Shown here piece by piece: positions 1-23,856 of a stretch of DNA of 64,000 bases (the stretch's first letter is position 1; each line of letters opens with the position of its first letter). This DNA is from an uncultured Ignavibacteriota bacterium (GTDB lineage Bacteria > Bacteroidota > Ignavibacteria > UBA10030 > BY39). The notes beneath the pieces are model-generated. The model was given only the letters and a program-made list of their open reading frames with translations. It was not told the DNA's origin and made no database searches. Made by a program: the position numbers and the translations under genes. The stretch is taken from NCBI GenBank assembly GCA_947085405.1, contig CAMTWO010000024.1, positions 579 through 64,578 of the forward strand, in the 5' to 3' direction.

Positions 1-1
1 A

Positions 2-3000: not shown

Positions 3001-3676
3001 AGGCGCAGATGGAAATAGTCAGGATATGTTCATTAGAAATGGTGCTAAGGGAATTAATTTAGGTATAAGCGATTTCGATATGCCGCCTTATCCACCTAAG
3101 AACCTTTTTAATGCACGGTTTCAATCGGATAAGTTTATAGAAACCATTCTTCCTAACGGGAAAATCAAAAAGATGCCAATTGTTATAAAGCATGCACAAT
3201 ATCCTGTTGAAATCAGTTGGGATGTAAAGGATGCAAATAATATAAACTATTGGATATATAAACCTGGTTCCAATAACGAAAAAGTGTCCCTCAGTGGTAA
3301 GGGTAAACTATCCGTTCCGAATACATCAAACGATATACTATTTGTAGAGGCCCAAGCAGCGTTACCAAGGCCTTGTGAATTTTATAAAATATCTACCGAA
3401 GAAAATATACCTGAAAACTTTTCATTATACCAGAACTATCCTAATCCCTTCAATCCAACAACAATAATCACATACGATTTACCTGAAAACAGTTATGTAA
3501 ACTTGAAAATATATGATGTTTTGGGCAGAGAAGTAGCAAAATTAGTAGAGGAATACCAAGAAGCCGGTTATAAATCTGTAGAATTTGATGCTTTAAATTT
3601 GACTAGCGGTGTTTATTTTTATAAATTAGTAGCAGGTAATTACACTTCAATCAAGAAAATGCTACTGTTACGTTAG
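2..3676 (+). CDS. Large secreted BNR/Asp-box (sialidase-like) repeat protein with fibronectin-III-like region and C-terminal T9SS sorting domain; 5' end outside window
   Basis: Frame is open from window position 2, and MKIGGP at 41 has no signal peptide, so the start is probably upstream. Repeated Asp-box motifs SxDxGxxW (SENDGQSWS, TTNGGVNWN, SDNGGVSWS, STDNGANWG). C-terminus NYPNPFNPTTIITYDLP...KIYDVLGREVAKLVEE...VYFYKLVAGNY...KKMLLLR is a type-A T9SS CTD. Confidence 0.8.
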   Translation: MTGQVWFRGNNFPVKIGGPCITYDPNNNPNGPYNMYMGGFGPNNGKAYLYKSENDGQSWSKVLSFEQFQNSSGFNGEGITCISIKEGNPHHIWVGTTNGIVFTTNGGVNWNRVSIPGVSTPYVKRILLRKEGSIITGAMVTWGKNKDTTGIGRLLTPNWSYEPLNSNFKSGLDPTPSDTGSSLYSALAFVDSLENVVMAGKESRPFRKTTNFGFSWTGDLVHPDKIRFWYDDASINNIPKHSNEAQNHPISPDYQSYSGMTSLVKNPNNGLGNQWYMSGGKGARMTTRGISHPDSVSASRWKYTVFGQAMTVNYDVVFNTVNYTGYPNGRKAIYLPLSDWTMGWTYQDRLNNIVSNGMISDALSYDRQKTFQSNLSDTYISNVIRILIDPDNPNLSYCVGGSVYGFTAENRRAGFYVRTLNTNGTFTTERNTTHQFLTDNDRAIVDAIIYKKPDNVNRIIALVGGNRASYPPGGTIGLFYSDNGGVSWSQGTFTVQSGVMGKQTMQAYNNSLIPGLRSGLDGSIGDLFNGHFSLSYAGGSLVYLWLQSDTTSGSYGGGLFISTDNGANWGAGADIDSGNIYWGAGSLKYIGNDRLALAFRDFRTTPKGLYIGSINRANNGSVSWAEFGVVGPTRFASAEHLDVNLDRWVVYGKRDGDLYNQIYLSINNGNWQRIGPLTPQHLPGVKSLRIRPDKNEIWVATGGQGVWKFNDFDPRFTVKDVGINTGWNMLSVPLEIFDFRANSVYNNRIPSTSVFTYDNGNYIISDSLTNGIGYWVKYSSSQNINYAGLSKSFIVPVKAGWNMIGSVDQNLPKSKIYSNPENLIISNFYGYENSYHNADTIKSGKGYWVKANLSGTITLDRNSTYSRTQYQCSDDSLPNPSGAPPIPTLVSPTNGSTGISNYPTLRWKRPESISLTYRLQISTNSCYTNLLYDESSISDTSIQIGLSYNTKYYWRVTATNDVTTSSWSNTWNFTTRSAPQIDPCDPVVSSLSSLDKFTVRGADGNSQDMFIRNGAKGINLGISDFDMPPYPPKNLFNARFQSDKFIETILPNGKIKKMPIVIKHAQYPVEISWDVKDANNINYWIYKPGSNNEKVSLSGKGKLSVPNTSNDILFVEAQAALPRPCEFYKISTEENIPENFSLYQNYPNPFNPTTIITYDLPENSYVNLKIYDVLGREVAKLVEEYQEAGYKSVEFDALNLTSGVYFYKLVAGNYTSIKKMLLLR

Positions 3677-3714
3677 AAAAAAATGAAATATGGCATAAAA
3701 ATAAGAGGAAGTAT

Positions 3715-5946
3715 ATGAAATTCGATGAACGGTGTAAGTCTAATCTTCTGAAAGCACAGGAAGAAGCTAAAACATTGCGCCACCAAAAAGTGGAACCCGA
3801 ACACATCCTCTGGGTAGAGTTGCAAGTGAACGAAGCAAGCTTTGTTGAGTTTTTAGGTTCTCAAAAAATTTCTAAAGCTCACGTTCAGGGTGTAATCAAA
3901 AAGAGAATGGAGGATTTGCCAAGGTCTGCAACCAGCGACACACGTGAAGCTTCGCCACGAATGAAAACCTGTTTTGAAAAAGCAAAAAGGGAAGATAGCC
4001 AAGATGTTAGCTGGAGAGACTTAGTCGTTGCCGTTGTCGAAATTGAGAACGACCCGCTCACTGAAGTTATTTGGGATTGTGCAATAACTCCTTATGAGTA
4101 TAAGAATTTTACTAAAGGCGAGAAAGAGCTTGCAACCGTAACGCTCGGTGAATCTGAAAAAGAAGATGTGCTTTCCAAGTTCTGCATCGATTTGGTTAAG
4201 CAAGCGCAGGAAGGAAAGTTAGGTGCTGTCATCGGCAGACAAACTGAGATTCGTCAAATTACAACGATTCTCTCTCAAAAAATGACAAACAATCCGATAC
4301 TTATCGGCGACGCCGGTGTTGGAAAAACTCATATTGTAGAAGGACTCGCAGTTAAGATTGCAGCCGGTGAAGCAGGTCCTATTTTAAATGGAAAGAAAAT
4401 TTTATCTCTTGATGTTGGATTGTTGTTAGCGGGTGCAAACTATCGCGGTGAATTCGAAGAGAGGTTGAAAGCGATTATTAAAGCAATTTCAGGACACAAA
4501 GGAAACACAATTCTTTTTGTGGATGAGATTCATACGCTAATGGGAGCCGGTCAAACATCAGGTGCGCTCGATGCGGCAAATTTAATTAAGCCAGCGCTAG
4601 CGCGCGGCGAGTTGTGGCTGATTGGTGCAACAACTTATGCTGAATACAGAAAACATATCGAGAAAGACCCAGCTTTTACTCGCCGTTTTGGAAGAGTGAA
4701 TGTCCCCGAGCCGACGCACGAGGAAACCGTTACAATATTAAAAGGAGTGCGTGAGAAATTTCAGAAACACCATCAAGCCACAGTTCCCGACGACCAGATT
4801 GAAACAATCGTTAGCTTGTCCGGCAGATATATCGGCGATAATCAATTTCCCGCTAAAGCAATTCAAACGCTCGATAACACACTTGCGCGAGTACGACTTG
4901 CAAATGTTCTGGGTGAACGCCCCGATATGGTTGTTACGAATGAAGATGTAGCAGTGTCGGTTGGTGAGAAAACTGGAATTCCAGTTGATAAAATATTTAA
5001 AGATGAATCTACACGATTGTTAGGTATTGAAGATGTTCTCAAGAAAGATGTTGTGGGTCAGGATGAGGTAATCAGCACAATTGCAAAACGCTTACGTATG
5101 ATGTCGTTACCATTCCGTGATTCTGTCCGCCCAAGAGGAATCTTCTTATTTATAGGTCCATCAGGTGTTGGCAAAACTTATCTTGCTAAACAAATTGCGA
5201 TTGAACTATATGCCAGCTCGAAACAGTTGGTCCGTTTGGATATGTCGGAATACACTGATGAGCACACTTCTCGCCGACTCGTTGGTGCTGACCCCGGTTT
5301 GGTAGGTTACGAAGAAGGCGGTGTTCTCACTGAAGCCATTCGCCGCAGGCCTTATTCAATGGTGCTGTTGGATGAAATTGATAAGGCACATAAAAAAGTG
5401 TGTAACCTGTTCCTGCAAGTTTTTGATGAGGGCAGGTTGACCGATAGTCAGGGACATACGATTAATTTTTCGAACACGGTATTTATTCTTACATCCAATT
5501 ACGGTTTTACCGGAGCTGATATTGATGTCGCTAAAATCGATGAGAGCCAACAAGCACAGAAAGCGCTCGACCATTTCAAACGACACCTTGGACCCGAATT
5601 TATTAAACGTATGGACGAAGTCGTGGTTTTCAAATTCCTCAAACCTGAAGATGTACATAGAGTTGTTGACCAAAAATTAGCTTCCTACAGTCAGGAGTTT
5701 TCAAAATCGCCGGGCGGTCATCCGGTTAATATCGAACTCCTGCCGGAAGCGAGAGAACTTATTGTAAAGAACGGTTATCAGAAAGAATTCGGAGCCCGTT
5801 CAATCACTACTTTTATAGATACAGAATTAGCAAGTATAATGGCGACTGAAATTCTGAAGCGCCGACAACAGAAAGGAGGTATGTATATCCCGGATAAAAT
5901 ATTAATAACTACAAAGGACTCTATCTTAGATGTTGTCATTGATTAA
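3715..5946 (+). CDS. ClpV/ClpA-like double-AAA+ ATPase (Clp_N repeats, two nucleotide-binding domains, no long M-domain); candidate sheath-recycling ATPase of the adjacent contractile system
   Basis: Walker A GDAGVGKT (D1) and GPSGVGKT (D2), Walker B ILFVDEIH and MVLLDEIDKAH, sensor motif GLVGYEEGG, N-terminal Clp_N repeats. Only a ~40-aa linker between D1 and D2 (743 aa total), unlike ClpB. AGAGGA RBS 6 nt upstream of ATG. Confidence 0.8.
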   Translation: MKFDERCKSNLLKAQEEAKTLRHQKVEPEHILWVELQVNEASFVEFLGSQKISKAHVQGVIKKRMEDLPRSATSDTREASPRMKTCFEKAKREDSQDVSWRDLVVAVVEIENDPLTEVIWDCAITPYEYKNFTKGEKELATVTLGESEKEDVLSKFCIDLVKQAQEGKLGAVIGRQTEIRQITTILSQKMTNNPILIGDAGVGKTHIVEGLAVKIAAGEAGPILNGKKILSLDVGLLLAGANYRGEFEERLKAIIKAISGHKGNTILFVDEIHTLMGAGQTSGALDAANLIKPALARGELWLIGATTYAEYRKHIEKDPAFTRRFGRVNVPEPTHEETVTILKGVREKFQKHHQATVPDDQIETIVSLSGRYIGDNQFPAKAIQTLDNTLARVRLANVLGERPDMVVTNEDVAVSVGEKTGIPVDKIFKDESTRLLGIEDVLKKDVVGQDEVISTIAKRLRMMSLPFRDSVRPRGIFLFIGPSGVGKTYLAKQIAIELYASSKQLVRLDMSEYTDEHTSRRLVGADPGLVGYEEGGVLTEAIRRRPYSMVLLDEIDKAHKKVCNLFLQVFDEGRLTDSQGHTINFSNTVFILTSNYGFTGADIDVAKIDESQQAQKALDHFKRHLGPEFIKRMDEVVVFKFLKPEDVHRVVDQKLASYSQEFSKSPGGHPVNIELLPEARELIVKNGYQKEFGARSITTFIDTELASIMATEILKRRQQKGGMYIPDKILITTKDSILDVVID

Positions 5947-6022
5947 AAGATGGATACAAAAATTATTTGGAAAGAAAGTATCAAATAAAAAAATATCTAA
6001 CAACAAAAATAAAGGAATAACC

Positions 6023-6559
6023 ATGGGTAAAACACAAGATGTCGACAAAGCTCGACGAATACTTCCCACAAATGCTGCACCGGGAGTTGCTGAACTTAAC
6101 AGTAACTTCACTACAATAATCGCTTCGGTTAATCCTGAGACTGCCGGTGAAGATTGCACACCCGTAGAATGTGGTTCGGTTGCAGAGGTTGCAGCTAACT
6201 TCAAACCTAAAGTTGACCTCGAAATTAAAAAGCTCGACAAGTTAGGAGCCGATAAGGTCGAAGAATCAACCGCAACTGTAACGATGAACTACGGCGAAGA
6301 ACCATCGCAGATCATGGATGATTTCGGGGCTGAAAACATTGCCGTAAAAGCAAAATCTTCCGAAGGCGAAAGAGTTTTGCTCGATCAGCAGCTCTCGTAT
6401 CTTGCATTAGAGGATTTACAGGAGCGTTTAAAAGATCAAAAAGTAGCTCAACTCTTCCAGAACAACAAAGAAGCTTTAATTCAAACCCTCGAGGCAGAAA
6501 TTGAGCGGATGAAGAAATTGATCGAAGATGTAAAATTAGAATCTCTCGGTGGAGATTAA
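6023..6559 (+). CDS. Hypothetical protein with C-terminal coiled coil; possible TssB-like small sheath subunit
   Basis: ATG at 6023 preceded by AAAGGAATAA. The upstream in-frame ATG at 5930 overlaps the ATPase gene. The segment VTMNYGEEPSQIMDDFGAENIAVKA...LLDQQLSYLALEDLQERLKD resembles the TssB/VipA conserved core (LNF.SLADF.PD.V...L..L.ELR..L). Similarity is weak. Confidence 0.4.
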   Translation: MGKTQDVDKARRILPTNAAPGVAELNSNFTTIIASVNPETAGEDCTPVECGSVAEVAANFKPKVDLEIKKLDKLGADKVEESTATVTMNYGEEPSQIMDDFGAENIAVKAKSSEGERVLLDQQLSYLALEDLQERLKDQKVAQLFQNNKEALIQTLEAEIERMKKLIEDVKLESLGGD

Positions 6560-6611
6560 CTAAATAATTAATAACAAAACTATTAACAATAATCCTTAAG
6601 GAGAAATAACT

Positions 6612-7031
6612 ATGCCACAACCAAAATCTGTAAAGATCAGCGGGGTTGAAATAGACGAAGTCGAAGGTGTAACTCTGAATATTGATACACCCACCGGTCC
6701 AAGAGGAGACTATGATGGACGGACCTGTGCCGCAACTGTAGAATTATACAGACGAGCTCGCAACACACCGACAAGTGAGATGTTTAAACTTGCCACAAAT
6801 GAAGATGGTCGTTTAAAAATTATTGAAGGAACGATTGTTCTACAGGATGCCGAGCTTAAAGAAACATACACAATCGAGATGAAGGAAGCATACATAAGTA
6901 GTTGGGAATTCCATCAACCCCCCGAAGATACCGATATGTACGAAACGATAAAATTTAAAGTCGGTAAAATGTCGCTATCAGGCGGTGGAAAATCTAAAAC
7001 ATTCAGTGTTCCTGAATTTAAACGCAAGTAA
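6612..7031 (+). CDS. Contractile-system inner tube protein (Hcp / phage tail tube-like), paralog 1
   Basis: 139 aa, strong AAGGAG RBS. N-terminal pattern SVKISGVEIDEVEGVTLNIDTP resembles the tail-tube signature (F.V.IDG......V.GL). Clear paralog of the next gene (shared ATNEDGR, GTI, KVG..........GGKG). Confidence 0.5.
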   Translation: MPQPKSVKISGVEIDEVEGVTLNIDTPTGPRGDYDGRTCAATVELYRRARNTPTSEMFKLATNEDGRLKIIEGTIVLQDAELKETYTIEMKEAYISSWEFHQPPEDTDMYETIKFKVGKMSLSGGGKSKTFSVPEFKRK

Positions 7032-7049
7032 AGGAAAGGAGATAATAAA

Positions 7050-7469
7050 ATGATAAAAGATTATGCAATAAAACTAAACGGGGTTACAATCCCTAATGTT
7101 CAAGAAGTACGAGTGCGCATCGAAACACCCGGAGATTCACGTGGTATCTACAGAGAGCCAACCTTTGCTGCTACAATCAACATTACCCGTGATGCAAGCA
7201 ATAATGCAATCGTGGATGCGTTTGGTATGGCAACTAACGAAGACGGCAGGAAGAACATTCTTACGAGCGGTACTATCGAATGTCATGGTGACGATGTAAA
7301 AGATAACTATGCTTTCGAGATCAAGAAAGCTTTTATGTCACGATGGTCGCTTATTAATCCTATAAAACCCGAATTACCTACGCTTGAATCATTTGAAATA
7401 AAAGTTGGAGAATTAGATTATAAAGCTGGCGGTAAAGGTGCGAAATTTGCACTCAAAGCTTTTAAATAA
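7050..7469 (+). CDS. Contractile-system inner tube protein (Hcp / phage tail tube-like), paralog 2
   Basis: 139 aa, RBS AAAGGAG. About 35% identical to the 6612-7031 product across the full length. Confidence 0.5.
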   Translation: MIKDYAIKLNGVTIPNVQEVRVRIETPGDSRGIYREPTFAATINITRDASNNAIVDAFGMATNEDGRKNILTSGTIECHGDDVKDNYAFEIKKAFMSRWSLINPIKPELPTLESFEIKVGELDYKAGGKGAKFALKAFK

Positions 7470-7504
7470 AATTGAACAAATAAATATCATGAAAGGATAG
7501 AACC

Positions 7505-8935
7505 ATGCCAGATGAAAAAGATAAAACTCAGGTTCGTGAAACAACTGCTGTAGCTATAAAAACGAATGAACTCGCCGCTATACTTGGTCCAAAAACCGGG
7601 TCATTGCTTCCTGACGGAGTTGCACTAAAGATTTTACCCTCTGCAAAAGATTTCCCGATGGAAAATATGCAAACTTCTAAGGAGTCGGTCGCAAAGCCAC
7701 TGAAGATTACCCGCTCTAAAGCCGACGTAAACGCGGGCTATGTTTATCTTAAGCGATTAGAAGTGCTTAAAGATATGCTTGCCGGCGCGGCTGACCTTGC
7801 AACTCTGCGAGCTCGTGTAAAAGAAAGACGTGAAATGGTTTCTCAAGTATTCCAACAGAACATGGCAGCATTTTTTGCAAAACAACGTGGGCTGGAAAAA
7901 ACATACAGAGAACTCGACACGTTTTTCTATGAATCGCGCCTCAACCCGGGTGAAGCCGTAGCTTATGTCTCAATAGTCAATGCACACGCCGACCGTGATT
8001 TCAATGCGATAATGGATCCTGAAACGGGTCTTGCTGCAAGATTTCCTAACCGTGAAAACTTCGATATGAAAAGCTTAATCGGTATGTTTGTAATTCCGGA
8101 TTGGCCCGGAAGCGAAGCAAAACTTTCTAAGTATGGAGAACTTGCAAACCACAGTATGGCTCACCTCTTCTGCGGTTTCCCGGATATGTCAATTAAAGAA
8201 GCGCAAGAGTTGTTCGATGTTGGCGGTGATTTAGCTGAACTGAAATCTACAGACCCGATTAAACAACACATCTCCGTAGTTGCTAATCCGCTTAGAATAC
8301 GCCGTGCAAATCGCTTCGAGAAGGAACTTGGAGACTTTTATATTAACCCTGCAGGTATTCTTGCCGGTAAGATATACAAAGGCGATATCAAAGAAGGCAT
8401 CCATATTGCCCAGGCAAATAAACCACACGAAATAAAAATACCAACACCAGACGGCTCACCGTTAGAAATGAAGTGGAACATACGCGGTGGTCAGCAGATG
8501 AAGTTCAATAAAGCATTGATTCCTGTTGCATTTTATGAAGGACTTGTGTTCTGGGGTGTAGATACATTGTATTTAGCCGGCGGTCAAGGTGACGAAGGAA
8601 TGGACCAGTACACTGTAAAACGGTGCGATGAGTACATTGCTAAAGTTGTTCTACATTATCTCAACGGCCGCACATTCGTTCCAAATGAGCAGTCAAGCCG
8701 TGACCAGATTCAATCAGCAGTGCAAAAATTCCTGATGCACAACACCGGCGGTCCTGCAAAGATGCTTGAGTATGGTAAGGTTGACGGCGTTGAGGTAGTT
8801 ACCAATCCGGATGGCTCTGTGAACAATCAGGCAATTGATATTCGTATAAATGTTAAATACAAGAATGCGATACGCCAGTTGAACATGTTTCTGGTTTCTA
8901 CAGATTCAGAGCATTGGAAAGAAGGTAGTAAGTAA
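7505..8935 (+). CDS. Contractile sheath protein (TssC / phage sheath-like)
   Basis: 476 aa, the size of Bacteroidota-type TssC. Sits immediately downstream of the two tube genes and upstream of the spike and baseplate genes. Strong RBS GAAAGGA. Followed by two hairpin terminators. Confidence 0.55.
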   Translation: MPDEKDKTQVRETTAVAIKTNELAAILGPKTGSLLPDGVALKILPSAKDFPMENMQTSKESVAKPLKITRSKADVNAGYVYLKRLEVLKDMLAGAADLATLRARVKERREMVSQVFQQNMAAFFAKQRGLEKTYRELDTFFYESRLNPGEAVAYVSIVNAHADRDFNAIMDPETGLAARFPNRENFDMKSLIGMFVIPDWPGSEAKLSKYGELANHSMAHLFCGFPDMSIKEAQELFDVGGDLAELKSTDPIKQHISVVANPLRIRRANRFEKELGDFYINPAGILAGKIYKGDIKEGIHIAQANKPHEIKIPTPDGSPLEMKWNIRGGQQMKFNKALIPVAFYEGLVFWGVDTLYLAGGQGDEGMDQYTVKRCDEYIAKVVLHYLNGRTFVPNEQSSRDQIQSAVQKFLMHNTGGPAKMLEYGKVDGVEVVTNPDGSVNNQAIDIRINVKYKNAIRQLNMFLVSTDSEHWKEGSK

Positions 8936-8986
8936 TTTTTTAACCGTTCCTCCAAAGGGTGACAAGTAAAACGGTTAGTTAAACTA

Positions 8987-9014
8987 CTTAGTGTCCGTCA
9001 GTTGACGGACTAAG
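8987..9014 (+). terminator. Stem-loop (cttagtgtccgtca g ttgacggactaag) downstream of the sheath gene
   Basis: A perfect 8-bp core palindrome gtccgtca/tgacggac extended by ctta/taag, followed by a T-rich tract (ctctttgtg). Confidence 0.5.
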
Positions 9015-9123
9015 TGCTCTTTGTGAATAAGTGGTAACTGATGTTATGCATTCAAAGTTATCGTGTCTCAATAGCCCCGAACTTCACAGGTCGTGTGATA
9101 ACTGTAGGAACTCATCCCCCGAC

Positions 9124-9160
9124 CCCTTCTCTTGCCAAGAGAAGGGGGAATTGGATTTTT
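9124..9160 (+). terminator. Rho-independent terminator-like hairpin (ccccttctcttg/caagagaagggg) followed by a T-run
   Basis: A perfect 12-bp inverted repeat at 9124-9148, then gaattggattttt. This is the second hairpin in the 310-bp gap between the sheath and spike genes. Confidence 0.55.
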
Positions 9161-9245
9161 CTCCGCGGGGTTGAGTTCATTATATATACTTTTTACACAA
9201 CCCCTTAATAACTTACTATTTTATAATTAGATAATCAGGTGACTT

Positions 9246-11003
9246 ATGGCTTCTAAAGTAACTAATATAATTGTAACCGCTACAATAAATGGAAAGCCAC
9301 ACGGCTTGCGATTCGTAAACGCTAACGTGTGGCAATCGCTTTTTTCGCATTGCAAAATACGCCTTGCACTCGGATTCGATGAAGCGGAATGTAATTCTGT
9401 TTTCGATAAAGCGGTTTCCTCATGGCTCGGTGAAAAGTTAGAACTCACTGTTTCGGACCAATTAGATAACAGTATTTCTAAAAAATATATTGGCATCATT
9501 CACAACCTTCACCTCGAGACCGGTAATCTTATAGTCGATGCTATGTCGGAAGATTATTCTCTCAACTTCGTCGAGAAACATAAATCCTTCGTCGATATGT
9601 CTGCTTTCGATGTAGTGAATACAATTGTTAAAAATAAAACGTTTGCAAATTCCTTGACGGGACCGTCAAACGGAGTTCAGTTTCGGTTTTTGCACCAGTA
9701 TGACGAAACAGATTATGAATTCTTAAAGCGCCTCGCACGTTACGATGGCTGCGTCTTGTATCATGATGGCGAGACATTTAGATACGAACCAAAACTAAGC
9801 GGAACGAAGGAAATTAAATTAGGATTAGAAAATATTTCGGATGTCCGGCTTAATTGTTTTCTGGGAGATACGAGGTTCCACGGCGTTCCTTATGATTATC
9901 AGAAACATTCTGAGTCATCAGATTTGGTTGTAAACTCAGGAAGTTACCCGGCGCCTAATCATCCCTTTGGTTCAAAAATTTTCCAAAAATCAAATGACCT
10001 ACATAAAGAACCGACTGAAATTTACAAAGAGCCGATTGTGCAGAAAAGTGACTTTGAGAACTTTATTAAAAATCAGCAGGCATTTTACAGCGGACTGCAT
10101 ATCAACGTAACGGGGACAACAAATCATCCGATGGTTACAATCGGGCGTGCGATTGAGGCACCCGATCATCCGATATTGAAAGATAAGTTTGTAGTGGTGG
10201 AATTAGAAGCCGAATTTAAAGGTAATATTTACAGCGCATCATTCAAGGCAGCCGTTAAAGATTCTATCTTGCGAAAATTAGCCACCGACGAACGTGAATA
10301 CATGGGGCTTTTACAACCAGCGATAGTTGTCGATAATAAAGACCCTGAAAATATTGGCAGGGTGCAAATTCGTTACCTCTGGGATACGGATGGGAGTGCT
10401 CACGCTTGGGCTCGTGTGTTAACATCTTTTGCCGGTTCTGACCACGGCTCGCACCTAACTCCGCGAATATCAGATCAGGTTTTGGTTGGATGCGAACACG
10501 GCAACACATCGCTTCCGGTAGTCATCGGTTCACTTTATCACAGCGAAAACAAACCCGATTGTAAAACGGATAACGGCACCGAAGAAGTGCTGATTGCAAA
10601 AACTTCTTCCGGCTCGGAAATTCGAGTTATTGAAAAACAAGGTTCTGAGCAAATCTTGATCACTATGCCCAACGGTGAAAACCTGATACGGATGGAACAC
10701 AAAGGTCCCAAAATTTTCATCGAGTCGAACAATGGGACTATAGAGATTCACGCAAAAACGATAAAGATCAATGCCGATGATAAAATTGAAATGAAAGCTG
10801 ACAAAATTGAAATTTCAGCAACCTCCAAAGCCGAGATCAAAGCACAGGATATTGATGCGACGGCAGGTAATAAGCTATCTCTCGCTGGCTCATCTTCTGC
10901 CGAATTGAAATCGTCAGCATCAGTCAAAGTTAGCGGTACGCAAGTCGAATCTTCAGCAGCCGCAACTAACGTAATCAAAGGAGCAATGGTACAAATTAAT
11001 TAA
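9246..11003 (+). CDS. VgrG-like spike protein (gp27/gp5 hub fused to a C-terminal beta-helix)
   Basis: 585 aa. Central region RVQIRYLWDTDGSAHAWARVLTSFAGSDHGSHLTPRISDQVLVGCEHGNTSLPVVIGSLYH resembles the gp5 OB-fold / phage baseplate V / VgrG core. C-terminus carries repetitive beta-strand motifs (IEIHAKTIKINADDKIEMKADKIEISATSKAEIKAQDID...). Confidence 0.65.
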   Translation: MASKVTNIIVTATINGKPHGLRFVNANVWQSLFSHCKIRLALGFDEAECNSVFDKAVSSWLGEKLELTVSDQLDNSISKKYIGIIHNLHLETGNLIVDAMSEDYSLNFVEKHKSFVDMSAFDVVNTIVKNKTFANSLTGPSNGVQFRFLHQYDETDYEFLKRLARYDGCVLYHDGETFRYEPKLSGTKEIKLGLENISDVRLNCFLGDTRFHGVPYDYQKHSESSDLVVNSGSYPAPNHPFGSKIFQKSNDLHKEPTEIYKEPIVQKSDFENFIKNQQAFYSGLHINVTGTTNHPMVTIGRAIEAPDHPILKDKFVVVELEAEFKGNIYSASFKAAVKDSILRKLATDEREYMGLLQPAIVVDNKDPENIGRVQIRYLWDTDGSAHAWARVLTSFAGSDHGSHLTPRISDQVLVGCEHGNTSLPVVIGSLYHSENKPDCKTDNGTEEVLIAKTSSGSEIRVIEKQGSEQILITMPNGENLIRMEHKGPKIFIESNNGTIEIHAKTIKINADDKIEMKADKIEISATSKAEIKAQDIDATAGNKLSLAGSSSAELKSSASVKVSGTQVESSAAATNVIKGAMVQIN

Positions 11004-11183
11004 AAATTTAAAAAAAATCTAAATTCAAAACACTAAATTCTAAATTCCGAAGGAATCACTTAGTGACAAATCTTAAATTCAAATAACACAATATATGAAT
11101 TCGTTAAATATTAGTTACAGTATTTTGGGTTTTGAATATTCGAATTTGTTTCGGATTTCAAAATTAGAAATTAGAAATTATTT

Positions 11184-11636
11184 ATGGCAGTTTTACATAT
11201 TCCATTAACATTATCGCCAATCGGTACTTTTCAAAGGGCGAGTACTGAAGAGAATATAGTCGGTTCACGACTTCGATTATTTGTTCTATCGGGTGCTGGC
11301 GAATATCTCAAATTACCATCGCCGGGCATTCGTGCTATGTGGGTTCAATTCTACAATATGGGAATGAGCGCCCGCTTCTGCGATATTATGGAAGAAGACA
11401 GACGAAGATCTCTCGAACAGATTATTAAAGCCGAAGTGAACAATTGGTTTGGAGATATAGCGGAAATTCAGGATGTGAACTTGGTTGGTGATGAGCACGA
11501 AGAAAATGGAATTAAATTCCGCACCGAGAATAAAGAATATGTTTTTAAATTTAAGGTATCAAGAAGCGAAAAAGGACTGAAAGCAGGAACTGTAGGTCCG
11601 TGGAATATTATCGAGGAAACACATGACGTTCACTGA
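11184..11636 (+). CDS. gp25/TssE-like baseplate wedge protein (GPW_gp25 lysozyme-like fold)
   Basis: 150 aa. Matches the gp25 pattern I.GSRLRLFVLSGAGEYLKLPSPGI......F..........IIKAEVNNW (cf. i.qsi..iL.T..GER...P.fG......F......wEPR). Overlaps the next gene by 14 nt. Confidence 0.55.
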   Translation: MAVLHIPLTLSPIGTFQRASTEENIVGSRLRLFVLSGAGEYLKLPSPGIRAMWVQFYNMGMSARFCDIMEEDRRRSLEQIIKAEVNNWFGDIAEIQDVNLVGDEHEENGIKFRTENKEYVFKFKVSRSEKGLKAGTVGPWNIIEETHDVH

Positions 11637-13134
11637 TTTTAAATCACGTTTTATCAGTCAGTACAAGGGGGATATAAAAGATCCCATACTAACAACAATC
11701 CTACAAACTCTTGAAGCTTATCAGGAGGAAGTACAGGATCAACTCCTTTTATCAACCTATGCTCAACGGAGCGATCAGGTTTCCGACGGTTTGTTTGAAG
11801 TGCTTCGCCGTCATTTGTTTGGTCAGATGTTTCCGGGTCCGGCGTATGTTGTTCTGCAATCTACTTTGCGTGAGGTTAAAACTGCACAGCCGGTGTTATT
11901 GGAGCAAGCTCATTATTTCAACGTACAAGATAAGGAAGGGGCAAAAGTTCTATTCGCTCCTCAATACCCCGCTTGGATTGTTCCTGCCAACACGAACGAT
12001 GTTCGGGTTGATAGCTATGGCGACGACCTGATGCTTGGCTTTAGCATTTATATCGGTAATTTGCAAGACATCGAAAATGGTGAAGTAAGTATTTTCACAG
12101 GCGATATAGACCCGCTGCTGGTGGAACGACTCCGCTGCCGAATTACACAAACTACCGGTTTCAAAGTTATCGAAAATTCGAGGAAGTCAGTTATTAGAAC
12201 TAAATATCCGGGTAACTACAACATCATTGATGATTTCTTTCTCACACCTTATGAATCCCGCTTCATCAAAATTCCTTTCGATATTTTCATCGCCGCTTCA
12301 TCAAGTCGAGGAAAAGATGATATGATATGGATTCCTTTTCCGGGGCTTGGGGCTTTTGCACAAGAATTGGAAAAGAAACTCACACTCAATTCATTTCTTA
12401 CCTGGAATATGGTGGAGATGGAAGCTCTTGCGTTGCCAGTCGATCAATTCCGGTATAACATTCCGATTACCGCGCATAAGTCGAAGGAAACAATCATTAC
12501 TTCGGTTACAGACCTCGGCACAGACCCGCCGATTGAATACATAAACGCTGCTACAGTTATGGATCCGGGTTATCCGTTTCAATATACTACGTCGGTTGAT
12601 ATTCATAAAGATGAAATTGTTTTAGCTTTTTCTCCACCGCCTTCGGGCACAGTGAAAGTACAATATTGTCAGTACGATATTGGAGATGAATGCATCAACA
12701 TTGCATCAGGAAGAAGTTTCGGACTTTATCAAGGAATAGATGAAAGAGTAAAAAGCGCTCAATCGATTACTCCGACTCATCGTATCGAGGCTCTGAATAA
12801 CAAAGCACACATCTGGAATTATTTCAGATCGCTTCTTGCAAGCCGCCATCGCTGGTTAACTAAAGACGACTTGCGTGCAGCTATGATAGGTTATCCTCCA
12901 TTTAGCCATCGAAGTGATTTAGTTAACGCAAATGATATTTCATTTGAAGAAAAAGTCGGGCGTGTTAAAGGATTTTTAACTCCATTCACCGAAATAAATA
13001 TTCCTGTAAATGATGGTGGATTATTAGACGAGCCCGACAAAAGTTACTTCGAACAGCAAATAAGCGATTATATTAGAGGTAGAACAGTGAATGGTAATTT
13101 TATCAGAATAAAACTTGTATCTGCAGAAACATAA
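11623..13134 (+). CDS. Baseplate wedge protein (TssF / baseplate J / gp6-like), putative
   Basis: 503 aa. Position directly after gp25 and before the next wedge gene follows the TssE-TssF-TssG order. Translationally coupled at both ends (overlap at start, TAATG junction at end). No specific motif recognised. Confidence 0.4.
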   Translation: MTFTDFKSRFISQYKGDIKDPILTTILQTLEAYQEEVQDQLLLSTYAQRSDQVSDGLFEVLRRHLFGQMFPGPAYVVLQSTLREVKTAQPVLLEQAHYFNVQDKEGAKVLFAPQYPAWIVPANTNDVRVDSYGDDLMLGFSIYIGNLQDIENGEVSIFTGDIDPLLVERLRCRITQTTGFKVIENSRKSVIRTKYPGNYNIIDDFFLTPYESRFIKIPFDIFIAASSSRGKDDMIWIPFPGLGAFAQELEKKLTLNSFLTWNMVEMEALALPVDQFRYNIPITAHKSKETIITSVTDLGTDPPIEYINAATVMDPGYPFQYTTSVDIHKDEIVLAFSPPPSGTVKVQYCQYDIGDECINIASGRSFGLYQGIDERVKSAQSITPTHRIEALNNKAHIWNYFRSLLASRHRWLTKDDLRAAMIGYPPFSHRSDLVNANDISFEEKVGRVKGFLTPFTEINIPVNDGGLLDEPDKSYFEQQISDYIRGRTVNGNFIRIKLVSAET

Positions 13135-13985
13135 TGGACGAGAAAGAAAAAATAGAAATACCACTTCAGATTGCTTCACTTGAAGACCTCCTGCCAATTG
13201 GACTGCTCGATAAAGATGAATCGGTTGGGACTTCAAATGCCGTAAAAGCATTGCGTATAATTGAACGGCTTATACAAGATGCGGGCTTGAACAGCATGGA
13301 GCATTCACGTTACGCTCTTCTGCAATCTTTTCCTCGCCTGTTTGCTGATAGAGACGGACAAACTTTCGAGACGCTGCACGAAGATATTCCCGATTATGTT
13401 CGCCAATATACCGCAGCGTTATGCCCTGAATGGTACTCAGATTTCATCTCATCTCTATCCGATGACCAAGCTGAAGTATTTCTGAAGAATTATGTCCATG
13501 CTCATGAAACTTGGGGACATCCGGAGGGAATAGCGACTCTTGTTCGAACGATGTTAGAAAGTTCAACTCAGTTTCCTGTCCCCGTCGTAGTGAAAAAATT
13601 AGAATATCAGGAGCGACCAATCCCGGATGAACTTCAGTCTAAATTAGGTGCGAAGGATAATTATTCAATAATCGGAAAAAATTTTGTTCTCGGCAAAAAA
13701 TTCAAGTCGCGCCCTAAATATTATAACATCATAATCGGACCGATAAATGTTAGAACGCTTGAAAAATTCCAGGAAGCGGGTTGGGCTGAGGATGCAAATG
13801 CAAGTAAAAAATTGTACCGGCTTGTAGAATTTGCCGAGCCGTTTTATTTTCACGCTCGTATTCAAATCCTGTTAGAAACCGCAGGATTCGTACTGGGACG
13901 AGCATCCATAGGAAAAGACCGATTGGGTATTGTTGAAAGTGAATTGGAAGAATATGTTGATACTTTGTTTGGCGTTAAAGGTTAA
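13134..13985 (+). CDS. Baseplate wedge protein (TssG / gp7-like), putative
   Basis: 283 aa. TAATG start overlap with the upstream gene. Assignment rests on gene order only. Confidence 0.3.
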   Translation: MDEKEKIEIPLQIASLEDLLPIGLLDKDESVGTSNAVKALRIIERLIQDAGLNSMEHSRYALLQSFPRLFADRDGQTFETLHEDIPDYVRQYTAALCPEWYSDFISSLSDDQAEVFLKNYVHAHETWGHPEGIATLVRTMLESSTQFPVPVVVKKLEYQERPIPDELQSKLGAKDNYSIIGKNFVLGKKFKSRPKYYNIIIGPINVRTLEKFQEAGWAEDANASKKLYRLVEFAEPFYFHARIQILLETAGFVLGRASIGKDRLGIVESELEEYVDTLFGVKG

Positions 13986-14014
13986 AAAAAATCATAAATC
14001 ATAAATCGTAAATT

Positions 14015-14665
14015 ATGGGACAACCAGCCGCACGTATAAGCGACATGCACGTATGCCCGATGGTAACACCGGGCGTTCCGCCAATTCCACATGTTGGTGG
14101 TCCTATTACTGGACCAGGAGTTCCTAACGTACTAATCGGTGGTATGCCTGCCGCTGTAATGGGCGATATGGCAACATGTGTGGGTCCACCGGATACTATT
14201 CTTAAAGGTTCGGTAGGTGTTCTGATTGGTGGCAAACCCGCTGCACGAATGGGCGATACTTGCGCACACGGCGGCACAATCGTTCTCGGATGTCCGACTG
14301 TTTTGATTGGCGAAGTGATGCCTGGCGCACCACCTGTTATTGTGCCACCTTTCGCTGTGCCGGTTCAGCCGGAAATGAAATCAAGCGAGAAAAAAACTAC
14401 TTCCCCAACTCCACCATCCAAAAAAGCTGAACAGAAACCTACTAAGAAAGAAGAAAAAAAGAAAACCGATTGGATTGAAGTAGAAGTAACAGATGAAGAT
14501 GGAAAACCGATGATAGGTGAAAAATATGAGATTGAGTTGCCAGACGGCTCTATTAAAAGAGGTGTTATTGATGCAAAAGGTAAAATTAAATTAGAGGGCG
14601 TTGAACCCGGAACTTGCAAAATTACTTTTCCTGAAATTGATTCTGAAGAATGGGAAATAAAATAA
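14015..14665 (+). CDS. PAAR-repeat spike-tip protein with Lys/Pro-rich linker and ~70-aa C-terminal beta domain
   Basis: The N-terminal 100 aa are a classic PAAR domain (PAARISDMHVCP..., GGMPAAVMGDMATCVGP, GGKPAARMGDTCAHGG). This is followed by KKTTSPTPPSKKAEQKPTKKEEKKK and a small domain (KYEIELPDGSIKRGVIDAKGKIKLEGVEPGTCKITF). Confidence 0.85.
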   Translation: MGQPAARISDMHVCPMVTPGVPPIPHVGGPITGPGVPNVLIGGMPAAVMGDMATCVGPPDTILKGSVGVLIGGKPAARMGDTCAHGGTIVLGCPTVLIGEVMPGAPPVIVPPFAVPVQPEMKSSEKKTTSPTPPSKKAEQKPTKKEEKKKTDWIEVEVTDEDGKPMIGEKYEIELPDGSIKRGVIDAKGKIKLEGVEPGTCKITFPEIDSEEWEIK

Positions 14666-15337
14666 TTGGAGCTATACATGAGCAAGGTACACATAGTAAA
14701 ACAAGGTGAGTGTTTAGCGAGCATTGCAAAGAAGAATGAGTTTAAAAATTGGAAAACTATTTATGAACATCCAGATAATAAAGATTTAAAAAATAAGAGG
14801 CCAAATCCAAATATTTTGTTCCCGGGCGATAGGATTATTATACCCGATAAATCGTTAAAGCAAGCAAATATAGAAACCAATGGAAAATACAAAATTAAGA
14901 TTAAGACGCAAAAAGTACAATTTAGAATTTACTTAAAAGATAGAAAAGGAAAACCTATAGCAAATAAGAATTATGAATTAATGATTGATAATCGAACATT
15001 TTACGGAACGACCGGTTCAAAGGGGTTAATAGAAAGAGAAATATCGGAAGATGCTGACGTTGGATATTTAACTGTAGAGATTAATGAACCACCATATAGT
15101 GAGAAATATAGTTGGAAAATTAAGATCGGAAATCTTGATCCAGCAGATGAAATCAGCGGAATACAAGCTCGTTTAAACAACTTAGGGTTTTCCTGCGGCA
15201 CTGTTGATGGTATCATTGGACAAAAAACGAAGGATGCATTAAAAGCTTTTCAACGGAGTTATAACATAGAACCAACGGGGAAAATTGATAATACTACAAA
15301 GAAGAAAATAGAAGATATTCATGACCAAAAAAGTTGA
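14666..15337 (+). CDS. LysM-domain plus peptidoglycan-binding (PG_binding_1) domain protein
   Basis: N-terminal LysM (KVHIVKQGECLASIAKKNEF...ILFPGDRIIIP). C-terminal PG_binding_1 (IQARLNNLGFSCGTVDGIIGQKTKDALKAFQRSYNIEPTGKID). Starts immediately after the PAAR gene stop. Confidence 0.75.
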   Translation: MELYMSKVHIVKQGECLASIAKKNEFKNWKTIYEHPDNKDLKNKRPNPNILFPGDRIIIPDKSLKQANIETNGKYKIKIKTQKVQFRIYLKDRKGKPIANKNYELMIDNRTFYGTTGSKGLIEREISEDADVGYLTVEINEPPYSEKYSWKIKIGNLDPADEISGIQARLNNLGFSCGTVDGIIGQKTKDALKAFQRSYNIEPTGKIDNTTKKKIEDIHDQKS

Positions 15338-15346
15338 TTGTATTAT

Positions 15347-16375
15347 ATGAGTAACAATGAAGCATTAATTTCTCGAGTATCATCAGACTCATCTGAAGCT
15401 AATACCTTGGTGCCAACAGCATACGAAAACCGCTTAATTGTTGTAGCACAAGGTATCGAACGTCAGGATAAAGATTTTGTTGGTGAGGACGAGATTTACC
15501 GAATACCTAATTATTTAAGAAATAGGATATCTGGATTGTTATTTAGTTCTGAAACTTTTGGCACTTACGTAAGTCATGAACAAGGCGTAATTTTTAATAT
15601 AAGTATTGTGACAAAGAAAGATGAATACAAATCATTTCTTGAAACGCCTGGAGTTCATGTTGTTTATAGCGGTCATGCGCGGTATGGTAGAGGACCTTGT
15701 TTTGGAGATGACCATGGACCAGGAGAAGATTGGGAAAATGGTACAGATCCTATGAGAACTGGATTATACAGAATAGGTTATCCTTACATTGCAATTTCAT
15801 TAGAAGATATTCCTCATCATCAGTACACTGCAAATGTGATTCCGGCGTCTGAGGTAATATCGAAGAATGAATGTCATCCCGATCTTAAACGAGCGTATTC
15901 GCGTTTGCGAACTTACAGTATTAATAACTTAGATCCAAGTGGTGTACTTATTAACCATGTAGCAGGTTCATTTAGCCCAGAAGATAGAATATGGGCAATT
16001 AAAGGATCTGTAGGCGGTCACCGTGGGACTCATCTTGTCCTTCGTGCCGGCTGGGAAAACACAGTTAGTTCACCAATGGACCTTGGTGCTACAAATATTC
16101 AGTGTCGTGTATTTTGTCATTTTGGGTGTAGTACATTCAAACATAATTATCGAATATTACGATTCGAAAAATATTGGAGAAGAACTGACACAGATCGGTT
16201 TGCGTTTTGGACAACTGCTCCTTCATACTTCATTGCGACTCGGTTTTGGCTTGTTAGGATATTGACCTATCCTAAATATAATGCTTTCGAATCATGGAAG
16301 CCTAGTTTAGATTATGCTGTTAAACGCACAAATCAGGATTTGAGAAGTATAGGACATACATATCGAATAATATAA
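15347..16375 (+). CDS. Hypothetical protein; candidate cargo/effector (His/Cys-containing region GHARYGRGPCFGDDHGPGED, C-terminal hydrophobic segment)
   Basis: ORF follows directly after the LysM gene. ATG at 15347 (a TTG at 15338 is also in frame). No recognisable family; the effector role is inferred from position only. Confidence 0.45.
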   Translation: MSNNEALISRVSSDSSEANTLVPTAYENRLIVVAQGIERQDKDFVGEDEIYRIPNYLRNRISGLLFSSETFGTYVSHEQGVIFNISIVTKKDEYKSFLETPGVHVVYSGHARYGRGPCFGDDHGPGEDWENGTDPMRTGLYRIGYPYIAISLEDIPHHQYTANVIPASEVISKNECHPDLKRAYSRLRTYSINNLDPSGVLINHVAGSFSPEDRIWAIKGSVGGHRGTHLVLRAGWENTVSSPMDLGATNIQCRVFCHFGCSTFKHNYRILRFEKYWRRTDTDRFAFWTTAPSYFIATRFWLVRILTYPKYNAFESWKPSLDYAVKRTNQDLRSIGHTYRII

Positions 16376-16421
16376 TGTTAAATTATGTAAAAACATTTTT
16401 TAAAAATGGTAAGTTTGGAGC

Positions 16422-17099
16422 GTGTTTATGATAACTTCTAAAATTTCTAAAAATTACAATTTTTTATTTTCTACGATTTTAATGCTACTTATTCTTAGTG
16501 GATGCGAACAAAATATTGAAAGGAGAAAAAATATGACTAAAGATCAAGTAATTGAAAGATTAAAACAAATAGATGAGAAACAATATGCAATAATAGATTT
16601 CCTTGCAGATTCATTATTGAATGATATAAGAGAGAAAGTTACCGCAGTTTCATCCTGCTGGCTTGATCCAGATAAGAACCTATCTTCTAATGCTGCAATG
16701 TTAATTAGTCAACTAGACGAAATTGCAATCATTCCGTTAATGAACACCAGTGTTCCCGAAAGCATCACAAAAAGAGTCTGGCTAATTCACACTATAACAG
16801 AAGCTGAGTTGGAATTGCGGGAAAAACTAATTGCTTATCTCGACAAGATGTTAGAAGATAAGTCGTCAGTTCTGATTCCAGAGCCCATCGGAAGAGAAGA
16901 AGAGTTACCCAAGCCACGGCGTGTTTGTGACGAAGCTTATATGCAAATGAGGCGATTATTAAATACATCAGAAAAAGTTGAAGAATATTACCTTAATGTG
17001 GATGCTTACTTAGATTTAACAGATGATGAAAAAGATAAAGAGATTTCAAAAGTGAAAAAAGCACGAGTATGGAAGAAATTTATCGAAGATTTCGATTAA
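16422..17099 (+). CDS. Lipoprotein (signal peptide plus lipobox LSGC); possible immunity protein
   Basis: N-terminus MFMITSKISKNYNFLFSTILMLLILSGC has a type II signal peptide. 46 bp downstream of the candidate effector. Confidence 0.5.
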   Translation: MFMITSKISKNYNFLFSTILMLLILSGCEQNIERRKNMTKDQVIERLKQIDEKQYAIIDFLADSLLNDIREKVTAVSSCWLDPDKNLSSNAAMLISQLDEIAIIPLMNTSVPESITKRVWLIHTITEAELELREKLIAYLDKMLEDKSSVLIPEPIGREEELPKPRRVCDEAYMQMRRLLNTSEKVEEYYLNVDAYLDLTDDEKDKEISKVKKARVWKKFIEDFD

Positions 17100-17132
17100 A
17101 CATGGTCTAAAAAATTTCTATTATTAATATTT

Positions 17133-17561
17133 ATGCAAGTACATTTCAGCGGACATATAACAGCTCCCTCGCCCCAGAAGGTAAGTGAAAGTGACCTTAT
17201 GGCTTTAATGCCTAATGAACGCAGGGGTTGTTTCGTTTATTCAGTGAGAGTTGAATTTCCGGAAAATAATTTGGCTGTCATGTTTACACCCTCAATTTTT
17301 ATAAACAAATCCCTCAGCAATAATGAAGCGAGCGAAGTAGAAACACATGAAAGACGGCATTTTGAGGATTTCCGCCGTCTTGCAAGAGAATTGAAGGCAG
17401 ATATAGAAGATGCAATAGAGGCAGGTAAAGATCCTGAAATCCGTACCCGTTTAGAGTGGTTCGACTATGATAATTGTATCGCGAGACAGAGTAGGCACAA
17501 TGAAGAGGGTATTACTGATATTTTACCCTGTATACAACCCTTTTCCTCGAGACCTATTTAG
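17133..17561 (+). CDS. Hypothetical protein
   Basis: 142-aa ORF with no recognisable motif. Confidence 0.3.
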   Translation: MQVHFSGHITAPSPQKVSESDLMALMPNERRGCFVYSVRVEFPENNLAVMFTPSIFINKSLSNNEASEVETHERRHFEDFRRLARELKADIEDAIEAGKDPEIRTRLEWFDYDNCIARQSRHNEEGITDILPCIQPFSSRPI

Positions 17562-20890: not shown

Positions 20891-20974
20891 AATATTCTGA
20901 TTTTATTTGAAAGAAAAAAAAGTTAGTATGGAAATTAATTATCAATATGAAAACATTATATGTGGAGAATACTT

Positions 20975-22243: not shown

Positions 22244-22329
22244 AATATTAATTTTATAAATAAACAAATCTATGGATAGATTAGAGGTAAACAATTAACT
22301 AATTAATAAAAACATTTGGAGGACGAATT

Positions 22330-22905: not shown

Positions 22906-22961
22906 ACTATTTTAAAATATTAAACATGAAATATAAATTAATTTAAAGGAGAAAATTGGTC

Positions 22962-23759: not shown

Positions 23760-23856
23760 TATTTTTTAATGACTCACTAATATTCAATAAATACAAGAAT
23801 AACTATATGAATGATCTTGAAATTAATAATATAAAAATAGATTGGAGGGTGATATT

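Follow-up and report, generated by a model that had tools for sequence, protein, structure and literature searches.

Type VI secretion system (T6SS) classes are distinguished largely by how a conserved, phage-like core is attached to the cell envelope, and a 2026 review recognises only four of them, T6SS-i to T6SS-iv (PMC13584744). TssJLM and TssNOPQR are non-homologous anchoring solutions, with TssNOPQR characterised only in 2024. The T6SS-i of Pseudomonadota is built from TssA-M, and the T6SS-iii of the Flavobacterium johnsoniae / Bacteroides fragilis type from TssB-K together with TssNOPQR. In T6SS-iii the tssN and tssP genes are nearly ubiquitous, and tssO, tssQ and tssR often cannot be identified even in bona fide loci (Bongiovanni et al., PMC10781749). 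The T6SS-iv of Amoebophilus and the extracellular contractile injection systems (eCISs; Afp, PVC and MAC) are built around a phage-type sheath of one chain and also possess a tape measure, tube initiators, a cap and anchors resembling fibres; their ATPase is of the Cdc48 type or is missing. Here we analyse positions 3715–17561 of a 64,000-nucleotide stretch of contig CAMTWO010000024.1 (hereafter, the window; unless a locus number is given, all coordinates refer to it). The carrier is an uncultured Ignavibacteriaceae/Kapabacteria-type bacterium within the Fibrobacteres-Chlorobi-Bacteroidetes (FCB)/Bacteroidota radiation. The region is a genuine, conserved gene cluster for a T6SS. Judged by sequence comparison, it probably encodes a cell-anchored, recyclable T6SS of a separate, deep-branching lineage with affinity to the T6SS-iii of Bacteroidota.

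The region holds 15 open reading frames (ORFs), all on the plus strand and at the coordinates given in the original prediction, an earlier reading of the same DNA made from the sequence alone. They are tightly packed or overlapping, except that the vgrG gene is bordered by two larger gaps of ~310 and ~180 bp. The gene set is conserved in 12 genome loci and five metagenome loci (referred to by number, L001 and so on), the former detected by a genome scan in metagenome-assembled genomes (MAGs) labelled Ignavibacteriaceae, Kapaibacterium, Ignavibacteria or Bacteroidota. An all-against-all ORF comparison showed that every locus of sufficient length shares a core of ten genes, in the order ClpV, 209-aa protein, two tube-like proteins, sheath, VgrG, 150-aa protein, 503-aa protein, TssG and PAAR. 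The ratio of nonsynonymous to synonymous substitution rates (dN/dS), calculated against L002, is 0.013–0.095 for every core gene, i.e. all are under strong purifying selection. Conservation and low dN/dS together therefore speak for functional genes, and not for chance ORFs or a decaying remnant. The same architecture is kept while sheath identity falls from 99% to 30%.

To assign the core genes, we compared the window families with T6SS-iii references using hhalign, the references being small alignments from annotated T6SS-iii loci on Bacteroidota plasmids (Tenacibaculum, Runella, B. finegoldii and Hymenobacter; n = 4). The result is a clean diagonal. The matches to TssH (100%), TssC (99.8%, E 4e-28), VgrG (100%) and TssG (73.7%, E 2.9e-5) form its strong part. 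The weaker part consists of TssB (43%, E 2.5e-4, in register), TssD (14%, E 2e-3), TssF (8%, E 4.4e-3, residues 29–510 against 29–591) and TssK (8%, for a 453-aa family encoded upstream, see below). Off-diagonal values do not exceed 2.2%—for the TssB-like and TssF-like families, 0.4%—with the exception of a 27-residue P-loop match between an upstream GTPase family (C8) and TssH (64%). Curated profiles place the Clp ATPase, TssC, VgrG, TssG, PAAR and a LysM/PG_binding_1 protein firmly, and weak but mutually consistent signals point to TssB, two Hcp paralogs and TssF.

The first gene (3715–5946) encodes a 743-aa ClpV/TssH-like ATPase. The double-AAA+ Clp architecture proposed in the original prediction is borne out by Pfam, which detects Clp_N, AAA, AAA_lid_9, AAA_2 (184 bits) and ClpB_D2-small domains. 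The NCBIfam TssH model TIGR03345 reaches 631 bits, which is under its equivalog cut-off of 885, and ClpA and ClpB score similarly; the ClpA model aligns to the protein as one stretch, and the M-domain is absent. A ClpV-like ATPase is encoded at the same position in all full-length related loci (dN/dS 0.041). The large sheath subunit TssC (476 aa, 7505–8935), also correctly called, matches PF17541 with 98.7 bits against a cut-off of 25, and the PF17541 members annotated in this analysis are T6SS-iii TssC proteins. Its nearest annotated relatives are T6SS-iii TssC proteins (DUF5458) on Bacteroidota plasmids, at ~26% identity. The sheath family is small: an exhaustive profile search of 1.84 billion proteins returned only 196 representatives at E ≤ 1e-3, and the family collapses to 47 clusters at 90% identity, all of them labelled 'hypothetical'.

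For the small sheath subunit the original prediction had proposed a 209-aa ORF (5930–6559) as possibly TssB-like. The N-terminal extension of this ORF is not conserved: its homologs begin at M32, a codon preceded by an AAGGA motif at a distance of 9 nt, and the two observations together place the true start at 6023 and leave a protein of 178 aa (6023–6559). In a search of the six-frame ORFs of the window and 14 related loci with a hidden Markov model (HMM) of T6SS-iii TssB, the eight best matches all belonged to this family, and the top three BLAST hits of the protein were TssB references. The best Foldseek matches of its AlphaFold2 (AF2) model are VipA/TssB chains, all non-significant (E 0.14–1.1); the model is of low confidence (mean predicted local distance difference test, pLDDT, 59), and the result is therefore only suggestive. 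Individual family members scanned against Pfam gave spurious coiled-coil matches only. The TssB-like call thus stands as a set of weak, consistent signals, with a corrected start and no Pfam match.

Two paralogous genes for 139-aa Hcp/TssD-like tube proteins, type 1 (6612–7031) and type 2 (7050–7469), precede the sheath gene; their products are 36% identical and were assigned through the same family alignment. The paralogy claimed earlier is confirmed, and the identification as tube proteins draws on weak but concordant matches. The family profile aligns with Hcp1 (PDB 6bdc) at E 0.003 over nearly the full length (profile 19–137, chain 18–132), and of the 23 family members four are matched by Pfam TssD PF17642 and four by T6SS_HCP, with best E values of 1.2e-4 and 5.5e-3, respectively, all below cut-off. 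At least two tube-family genes are found in every locus covering that position, with 'MPxPK' and 'MIK' types recurring across loci, and both window genes are strongly constrained (dN/dS 0.036 for type 1 and 0.013 for type 2). In L003 (7484–9930) the number of Hcp-like paralogs rises from two to four, and one of the four is encoded upstream of the TssB-like gene, suggesting that tube genes continue to be duplicated in the clade.

The spike and its tip were both rightly recognised in the original prediction. VgrG/TssI (585 aa, 9246–11003) matches Phage_base_V with 73 bits and Phage_GPD with 31.8 bits, and TIGR03361 with 97 bits, below the cut-off of that model. The PAAR protein (216 aa, 14015–14665; PAAR_motif 82.8 bits) has a linker rich in Pro and Lys and, at its C-terminus, a small domain, and its gene is conserved after tssG in most related loci. 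In L004 (7716–9272) and L005 (13374–14936) a lipoprotein of ~520 aa with repeated beta-propeller-like motifs is encoded between VgrG and the 150-aa protein; it may be a VgrG-linked cargo.

Of the two baseplate wedge proteins that had been proposed, TssG (283 aa, 13134–13985) scores 35.8 bits with Pfam PF06996 T6SS_TssG, exceeding the cut-off of 24.6, and 42 bits with TIGR03347, below cut-off. The assignment of its partner, a TssF-like protein of 503 aa (11623–13134), is weaker. Besides the hhalign match, Pfam T6SS_TssF recognises one of 13 family members (E 0.056), and the gene (dN/dS 0.068) always lies directly 5' of tssG with a stop/start overlap. The 150-aa protein (11184–11636) had been read as gp25/TssE, and this reading did not hold up: no such signal was obtained with Pfam (family members scanned singly included), NCBIfam, a PDB profile search or hhalign. 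Its link with TssE/gp25 is one of position only. The gene is conserved in 11 loci of the window subclade (dN/dS 0.067), and the sister-clade or distant loci L023–L026 have no separate gene there. Single-sequence and profile searches of the PDB with the sheath, the TssB candidate, the 150-aa, the TssF-like and the 345-aa protein (see below) gave nothing useful.

The original prediction had also stated that there is no TssK near the locus. The window begins 3.7 kb before the ClpV gene, and in L002, L003, L007, L010 and L017 two further conserved genes precede ClpV, encoding a protein of ~450 aa followed by one of ~725 aa. The top 11 Foldseek matches of the AF2 model of the 450-aa protein (L002/L017; pLDDT 79) are all TssK, with E values down to 2.4e-10, and include structures of TssK from enteroaggregative Escherichia coli and other T6SS-i systems; the TssK homolog of the sister locus L024 carries Pfam T6SS_VasE. 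The apparent lack of TssK is therefore an edge effect, as the homolog lies just 5' of the window in close relatives, and the negative claim of the original prediction stands for the downstream side only. Upstream of TssK in L002 and L017 we found a histidine kinase and LuxR-type response regulator pair, and not TssN-R.

The ~725-aa protein (670–770 aa across the clade) has a P-loop GTPase domain at its centre and a long coiled coil at its C-terminus. It matches Pfam DO-GTPase2/1, weakly in the window subclade, and its family (C8) is homologous to proteins of L023 and L024 that score above the DO-GTPase2 cut-off (44.8 and 27.9 bits). The GTPase gene always adjoins the tssK homolog, and everywhere in the clade its place is between tssK and clpV. 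That the TssK-GTPase pair stays in position over the whole range of sheath identities argues for a functional linkage, and the pair marks the whole clade. DO-GTPases are described from conflict systems, in which paired DO-GTPases are combined with GAP1 and variable effectors (Kaur, Burroughs, Iyer & Aravind 2020, PMC7159879); that article does not connect them with T6SS, which it does not mention, using the phrase 'type VI' once. The protein of the window clade shares the GTPase domain with these systems and differs in being single, in its long C-terminal coiled coil and in having TssK for a partner. The GTPase gene of L001 has its 3' end 2.2 kb upstream of the first base of the window, and two cargo genes of the type IX secretion system (T9SS) lie between it and ClpV, one of them being window 41–3676 (Por_Secre_tail). 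These cargo genes appear to have been inserted between the GTPase gene and clpV, splitting an ancestral T6SS locus. An extra conserved coiled-coil protein of 670–710 aa is encoded between the GTPase and the ClpV/TssB position in L023 (5161–7293) and L024 (7379–9391), and L024 has no ClpV gene at that position.

The gene order of the window had been described as matching neither canonical T6SS-i/iii nor Afp/PVC loci; its distinctness was overstated, and gene order is not diagnostic here. The relatives L012, L023, L024 and L026 have the order TssB-TssC-Hcp-Hcp, making the tube-tube-sheath order of the window a local rearrangement, and VgrG likewise precedes TssE-F-G on the Runella T6SS-iii plasmid. 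More broadly, L023 and L024 (sister clade) and L026 (basal in the window clade) follow the scheme TssK-GTPase-...-TssB-TssC-Hcp-Hcp-VgrG-TssF-TssG-PAAR, and L025, whose contig begins just 5' of TssB, shows the TssB-to-TssG part of it. In a neighbour-joining (NJ) tree of the sheath, the window clade and its sister clade stand apart from the four canonical T6SS-iii references. The neighbouring clade P0165 has VipA and TssD proteins that Pfam recognises, and we therefore regard it as canonical.

Two observations on individual loci should be added. L001, from the closest MAG, is collinear with the window at 94% nucleotide identity until 6 bp past the sheath stop codon (L001 11438, equal to window 8941), and beyond this point unrelated genes take the place of VgrG-TssF-TssG-PAAR; the break could reflect a true rearrangement or loss, or else a chimera produced by co-assembly. 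Some MAGs bear other labels: L005 and L008 are labelled Hyphomicrobiales (46.5% and 37.0% GC), and L012 Gammaproteobacteria (52.4% GC, a value that does not discriminate). Hyphomicrobiales are expected to have a higher GC content than this, and the labels of L005 and L008 therefore look like binning or labelling errors.

In line with the original prediction, no TssJLM or TssN-R homolog was found in the window, nor within ~10 kb around 14 related loci. HMMs of TssN, TssO, TssP, TssR and DUF5457 built from the reference loci detected nothing in the six-frame ORFs of the window and these 14 loci. NCBIfam, which holds models for TssN, TssO, TssQ and TssR, gave no TssN, TssO or TssR match among the window proteins; the only TssQ_fam matches were two TPR proteins (20327–20890 and 22330–22905) whose scores of 29 and 28 bits stay far under the cut-off of 65 and reflect TPR-level similarity. 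TssJ, TssL, TssM and TssA were not matched by Pfam or NCBIfam in the window ORFs tested. Since tssN and tssP are nearly ubiquitous in T6SS-iii (PMC10781749) and neither was found here, this type of locus departs from T6SS-iii in that respect. We also considered the block of TPR, lipoprotein and kinase genes at 17.6–23.8 kb as a membrane complex and rejected it: only the kinase recurs in related loci, and the TssQ-like matches are TPR-level.

In relation to T6SS-i, the locus shares the sheath pair, Hcp, VgrG, PAAR, TssF/G/K and ClpV, and differs in its lack of TssJ, TssL, TssM and TssA and in a sheath that is not of the VipB (PF05943) family. With T6SS-iii it has in common the TssC of PF17541, an FCB-group host, clearly homologous ClpV, VgrG, TssG and PAAR, weakly homologous TssB, TssD, TssF and TssK, the lack of TssA and TssJLM, and (with the Runella plasmid) the overall order ClpV-TssB-TssC-Hcp...VgrG...TssF-TssG...PAAR. 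It departs from T6SS-iii in its divergent sheath and separate NJ clade, in TssB and Hcp proteins that no longer match Pfam VipA and TssD as the canonical ones do, in the lack of TssN/O/P/Q/R in or near the locus and of a recognisable TssE, in the DO-GTPase-like protein fixed between tssK and clpV, and in two obligatory Hcp paralogs. We thus see in the lineage a T6SS-iii-related variant with a recognisable core and none of the known anchor genes in or near the locus. In the literature that we searched it is undescribed, and our searches met with neither a T6SS from Ignavibacteria nor one linked to a GTPase. The original proposal of a divergent or undescribed contractile injection system subtype is right in essence, and needs qualification in that the system is not unrelated to known classes, given its PF17541 sheath with ~26% identity to T6SS-iii TssC.

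A bolder formulation would be that the window clade and its sister clade constitute a fifth T6SS lineage that lacks both TssJLM and TssNOPQR, and in which the TssK baseplate is coupled to the envelope, or firing is gated, by the DO-GTPase-like coiled-coil protein together with other partners. We offer it tentatively, as we do the corollary that its carriers are Ignavibacteria/Kapabacteria-like and other uncultured bacteria. If true, this would be a third, independently evolved solution to T6SS anchoring.

Several points weigh against our interpretation. TssK and the GTPase lie outside the window, and we infer their presence in this genome from L001 (94% nucleotide identity, collinear with window 1–8941), L002 and L017. 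The GTPase might be part of a conflict system next to the T6SS and not of the T6SS itself, and it has no transmembrane (TM) segment that would hint at an anchor. No TssE/gp25 was identified at the locus, the 150-aa protein having no detectable similarity to TssE. The TssB, Hcp and TssF scores are weak singly and convincing only jointly, and the window proteins themselves have no match of their own in Pfam or NCBIfam; the same is true of all of the proteins encoded at 5930–6559, 6612–7031, 7050–7469, 11184–11636, 11623–13134, 15338–16375, 16422–17099 and 17133–17561. The sheath NJ tree is crude, with no outgroup and no support values. The TssN-R reference HMMs were built from two to three sequences only, and divergent homologs could therefore have escaped them; the genome may also carry membrane-complex genes at another site, our data covering the 64-kb window and ±10 kb flanks.

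These last two points lend themselves to the alternative that the locus is an ordinary, though divergent, T6SS-iii, whose TssN-R genes are located at another site in the genome or have diverged beyond the reach of the profiles, and that the GTPase is an unrelated neighbour. A PF17541 sheath like that of canonical T6SS-iii, the FCB/Bacteroidota host and the frequent failure to identify tssO, tssQ and tssR in bona fide T6SS-iii (PMC10781749) fit this alternative as well. We nevertheless consider it rather unlikely. The nearly ubiquitous tssN and tssP (PMC10781749) are found in none of 17 loci spanning 30–99% sheath identity, the NCBIfam TssN/O/Q/R models yielded nothing above cut-off, the TssK-GTPase pair holds its position over this whole range, and the clade is separated from the canonical references in the sheath tree.

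Far less probable is that the locus encodes an eCIS, a tailocin, a T6SS-iv-like particle or a prophage tail module that is released by lysis and is neither anchored nor recycled. Like T6SS-iv and the eCISs, this is a contractile sheath-tube-spike machine in which no canonical membrane complex is recognisable; moreover, it has two tube-like paralogs, as in Afp/PVC, and VgrG before the baseplate genes. However, the sheath is split into a TssC-type large subunit and a separate small subunit and is not of the Phage_sheath_1 type. The co-conserved ATPase is of the Clp family and not Cdc48-type, and TssG and the TssK homolog (in relatives, 5' of the window) are T6SS-specific wedge parts. Pfam and NCBIfam scans of the window identified no phage-type single sheath, tube initiator or fibre-like anchor, no cap or lysis genes, and, as had been noted before, no tape measure or tail fibre. 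The sheath sequence has no match in the PDB. Nor has it any in 50,697 phage records or in IMG/VR—on which ground a phage or tailocin origin was rejected—and a DUF4123 T6SS adaptor is encoded in relatives. The original view that this is a T6SS-type machine, and not a released eCIS, is accordingly upheld by the TssC-family sheath, the separate TssB-like subunit, the ClpV-like ATPase, VgrG, PAAR and TssG, and further by the TssK and the adaptor of the related loci.

Least probable of all is a decaying, non-functional T6SS remnant that has lost its membrane complex, for while no anchor genes are present and the L001 locus breaks right after the sheath gene, the core ORFs are intact in many genomes, dN/dS is 0.01–0.10 for every core gene, the architecture persists as sheath identity falls from 99% to 30%, and the turnover of the effector region resembles that in active T6SS loci.

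On the interpretation that we favour, a cell-anchored and recyclable T6SS, the machine would work much as in the established T6SS model, from which baseplate-tube-sheath firing and ClpV recycling are taken by analogy. A baseplate of TssF, TssG and TssK would form around the VgrG-PAAR spike, with the 150-aa protein perhaps acting as sheath initiator, and would nucleate a tube built from both Hcp paralogs, which would be non-redundant, with a TssB-TssC sheath around it. Contraction of the sheath would expel the spike and its cargo into a neighbouring cell, and the ClpV-like ATPase would then take the contracted sheath apart. Candidate cargo comprises the C-terminal domain of PAAR, the LysM/PG-binding protein and, partnered by the lipoprotein, the 345-aa protein. 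More speculatively, the GTPase and TssK might form a switch for assembly or firing, or the GTPase might be part of a non-homologous anchor. It is plausible, though again speculative, that a kinase with PEGA repeats encoded downstream serves as an envelope sensor analogous to PpkA.

The content 3' of PAAR varies between loci, as expected for effector regions, and includes the DUF4123 adaptor in L007 and L009. In the window, the first gene after PAAR (14666–15337) encodes a 223-aa protein with a PG_binding_1 domain (56.5 bits) and a weak LysM match, as foreseen in the original prediction; it has neither a TM segment nor a signal peptide, has conserved counterparts in L002 and L011, the closest loci, and in no others, and is a candidate cargo or peptidoglycan-targeting module. 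The proposed effector and lipoprotein follow. The 345-aa candidate effector (15338–16375) lies in the variable region, is so called from its position only, has no Pfam, NCBIfam, PDB or plasmid match and is not conserved among the relatives. The predicted 225-aa lipoprotein (16422–17099), a candidate immunity protein, has a lipobox (LILSGC) after a hydrophobic N-terminus, no family match and no conserved counterpart in related loci. By their position, the three genes probably make up a cargo/immunity set with antibacterial, peptidoglycan-directed activity. The next gene (17133–17561) encodes a 142-aa protein with no family match and 65% identity to the product of L011 9559, just 5' of the kinase gene.

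The latter (17643–20159, plus strand) encodes a membrane Ser/Thr kinase, a candidate regulator with a Pkinase domain (57.9 bits), TM segments at residues 3–21 and 385–403 and six periplasmic PEGA repeats (181.9 bits over six stretches). As a neighbouring membrane kinase it recalls the PpkA threonine-phosphorylation pathway of T6SS-i. It recurs in four loci, with homologs at the 3' ends of L007, L009 and L011, and no FHA or PP2C partner was seen in Pfam and NCBIfam scans. A set of plus-strand envelope genes with an uncertain link to the T6SS, recognised by TM and signal features, extends from 20327 to 23759. Two of its members are the TPR proteins mentioned above, paralogs of ~190 aa that each have a signal or anchor at the N-terminus and a TM helix at the C-terminus. 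Between them is encoded a lipoprotein containing a CarboxypepD_reg domain (20960–22243), and the last member is a secreted 267-aa protein (22956–23759); none of these genes at 20–24 kb has a conserved counterpart in the related loci.

Elsewhere the window carries housekeeping genes and T9SS cargo. Four proteins (41–3676, 23842–25752, 27223–28599 and 29000–30976) have a T9SS sorting domain (Por_Secre_tail) at the C-terminus, and a 1038-aa Type ISP restriction-modification enzyme (N6_Mtase and Type_ISP_C, 303 bits) is encoded on the minus strand at the far end (60768–63884). As to expression signals, clear AGGA/GGAG motifs precede the ClpV gene and four sheath/tube genes (3715–7505). Three starts in the ORF list, at 14666, 15338 and 17643, are TTG codons with no Shine-Dalgarno-like motif, and the real starts may be in-frame ATG codons a few residues downstream, e.g. 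M5 of the LysM protein. A promoter and terminator scan gave a signal no higher than background.

The group described here is missed by standard T6SS-iii detection rules, which require TssN/P, and by the Pfam TssB and TssD models. If it is indeed a third lineage with a recognisable core, none of the known anchors and an invariant GTPase beside TssK, then T6SS anchoring would have been reinvented once again, and the GTPase would be a nucleotide-switch candidate for the control of T6SS assembly or firing. T6SS-mediated antagonism would, moreover, reach into Ignavibacteria/Kapabacteria, common inhabitants of sediments, bioreactors and hot springs.

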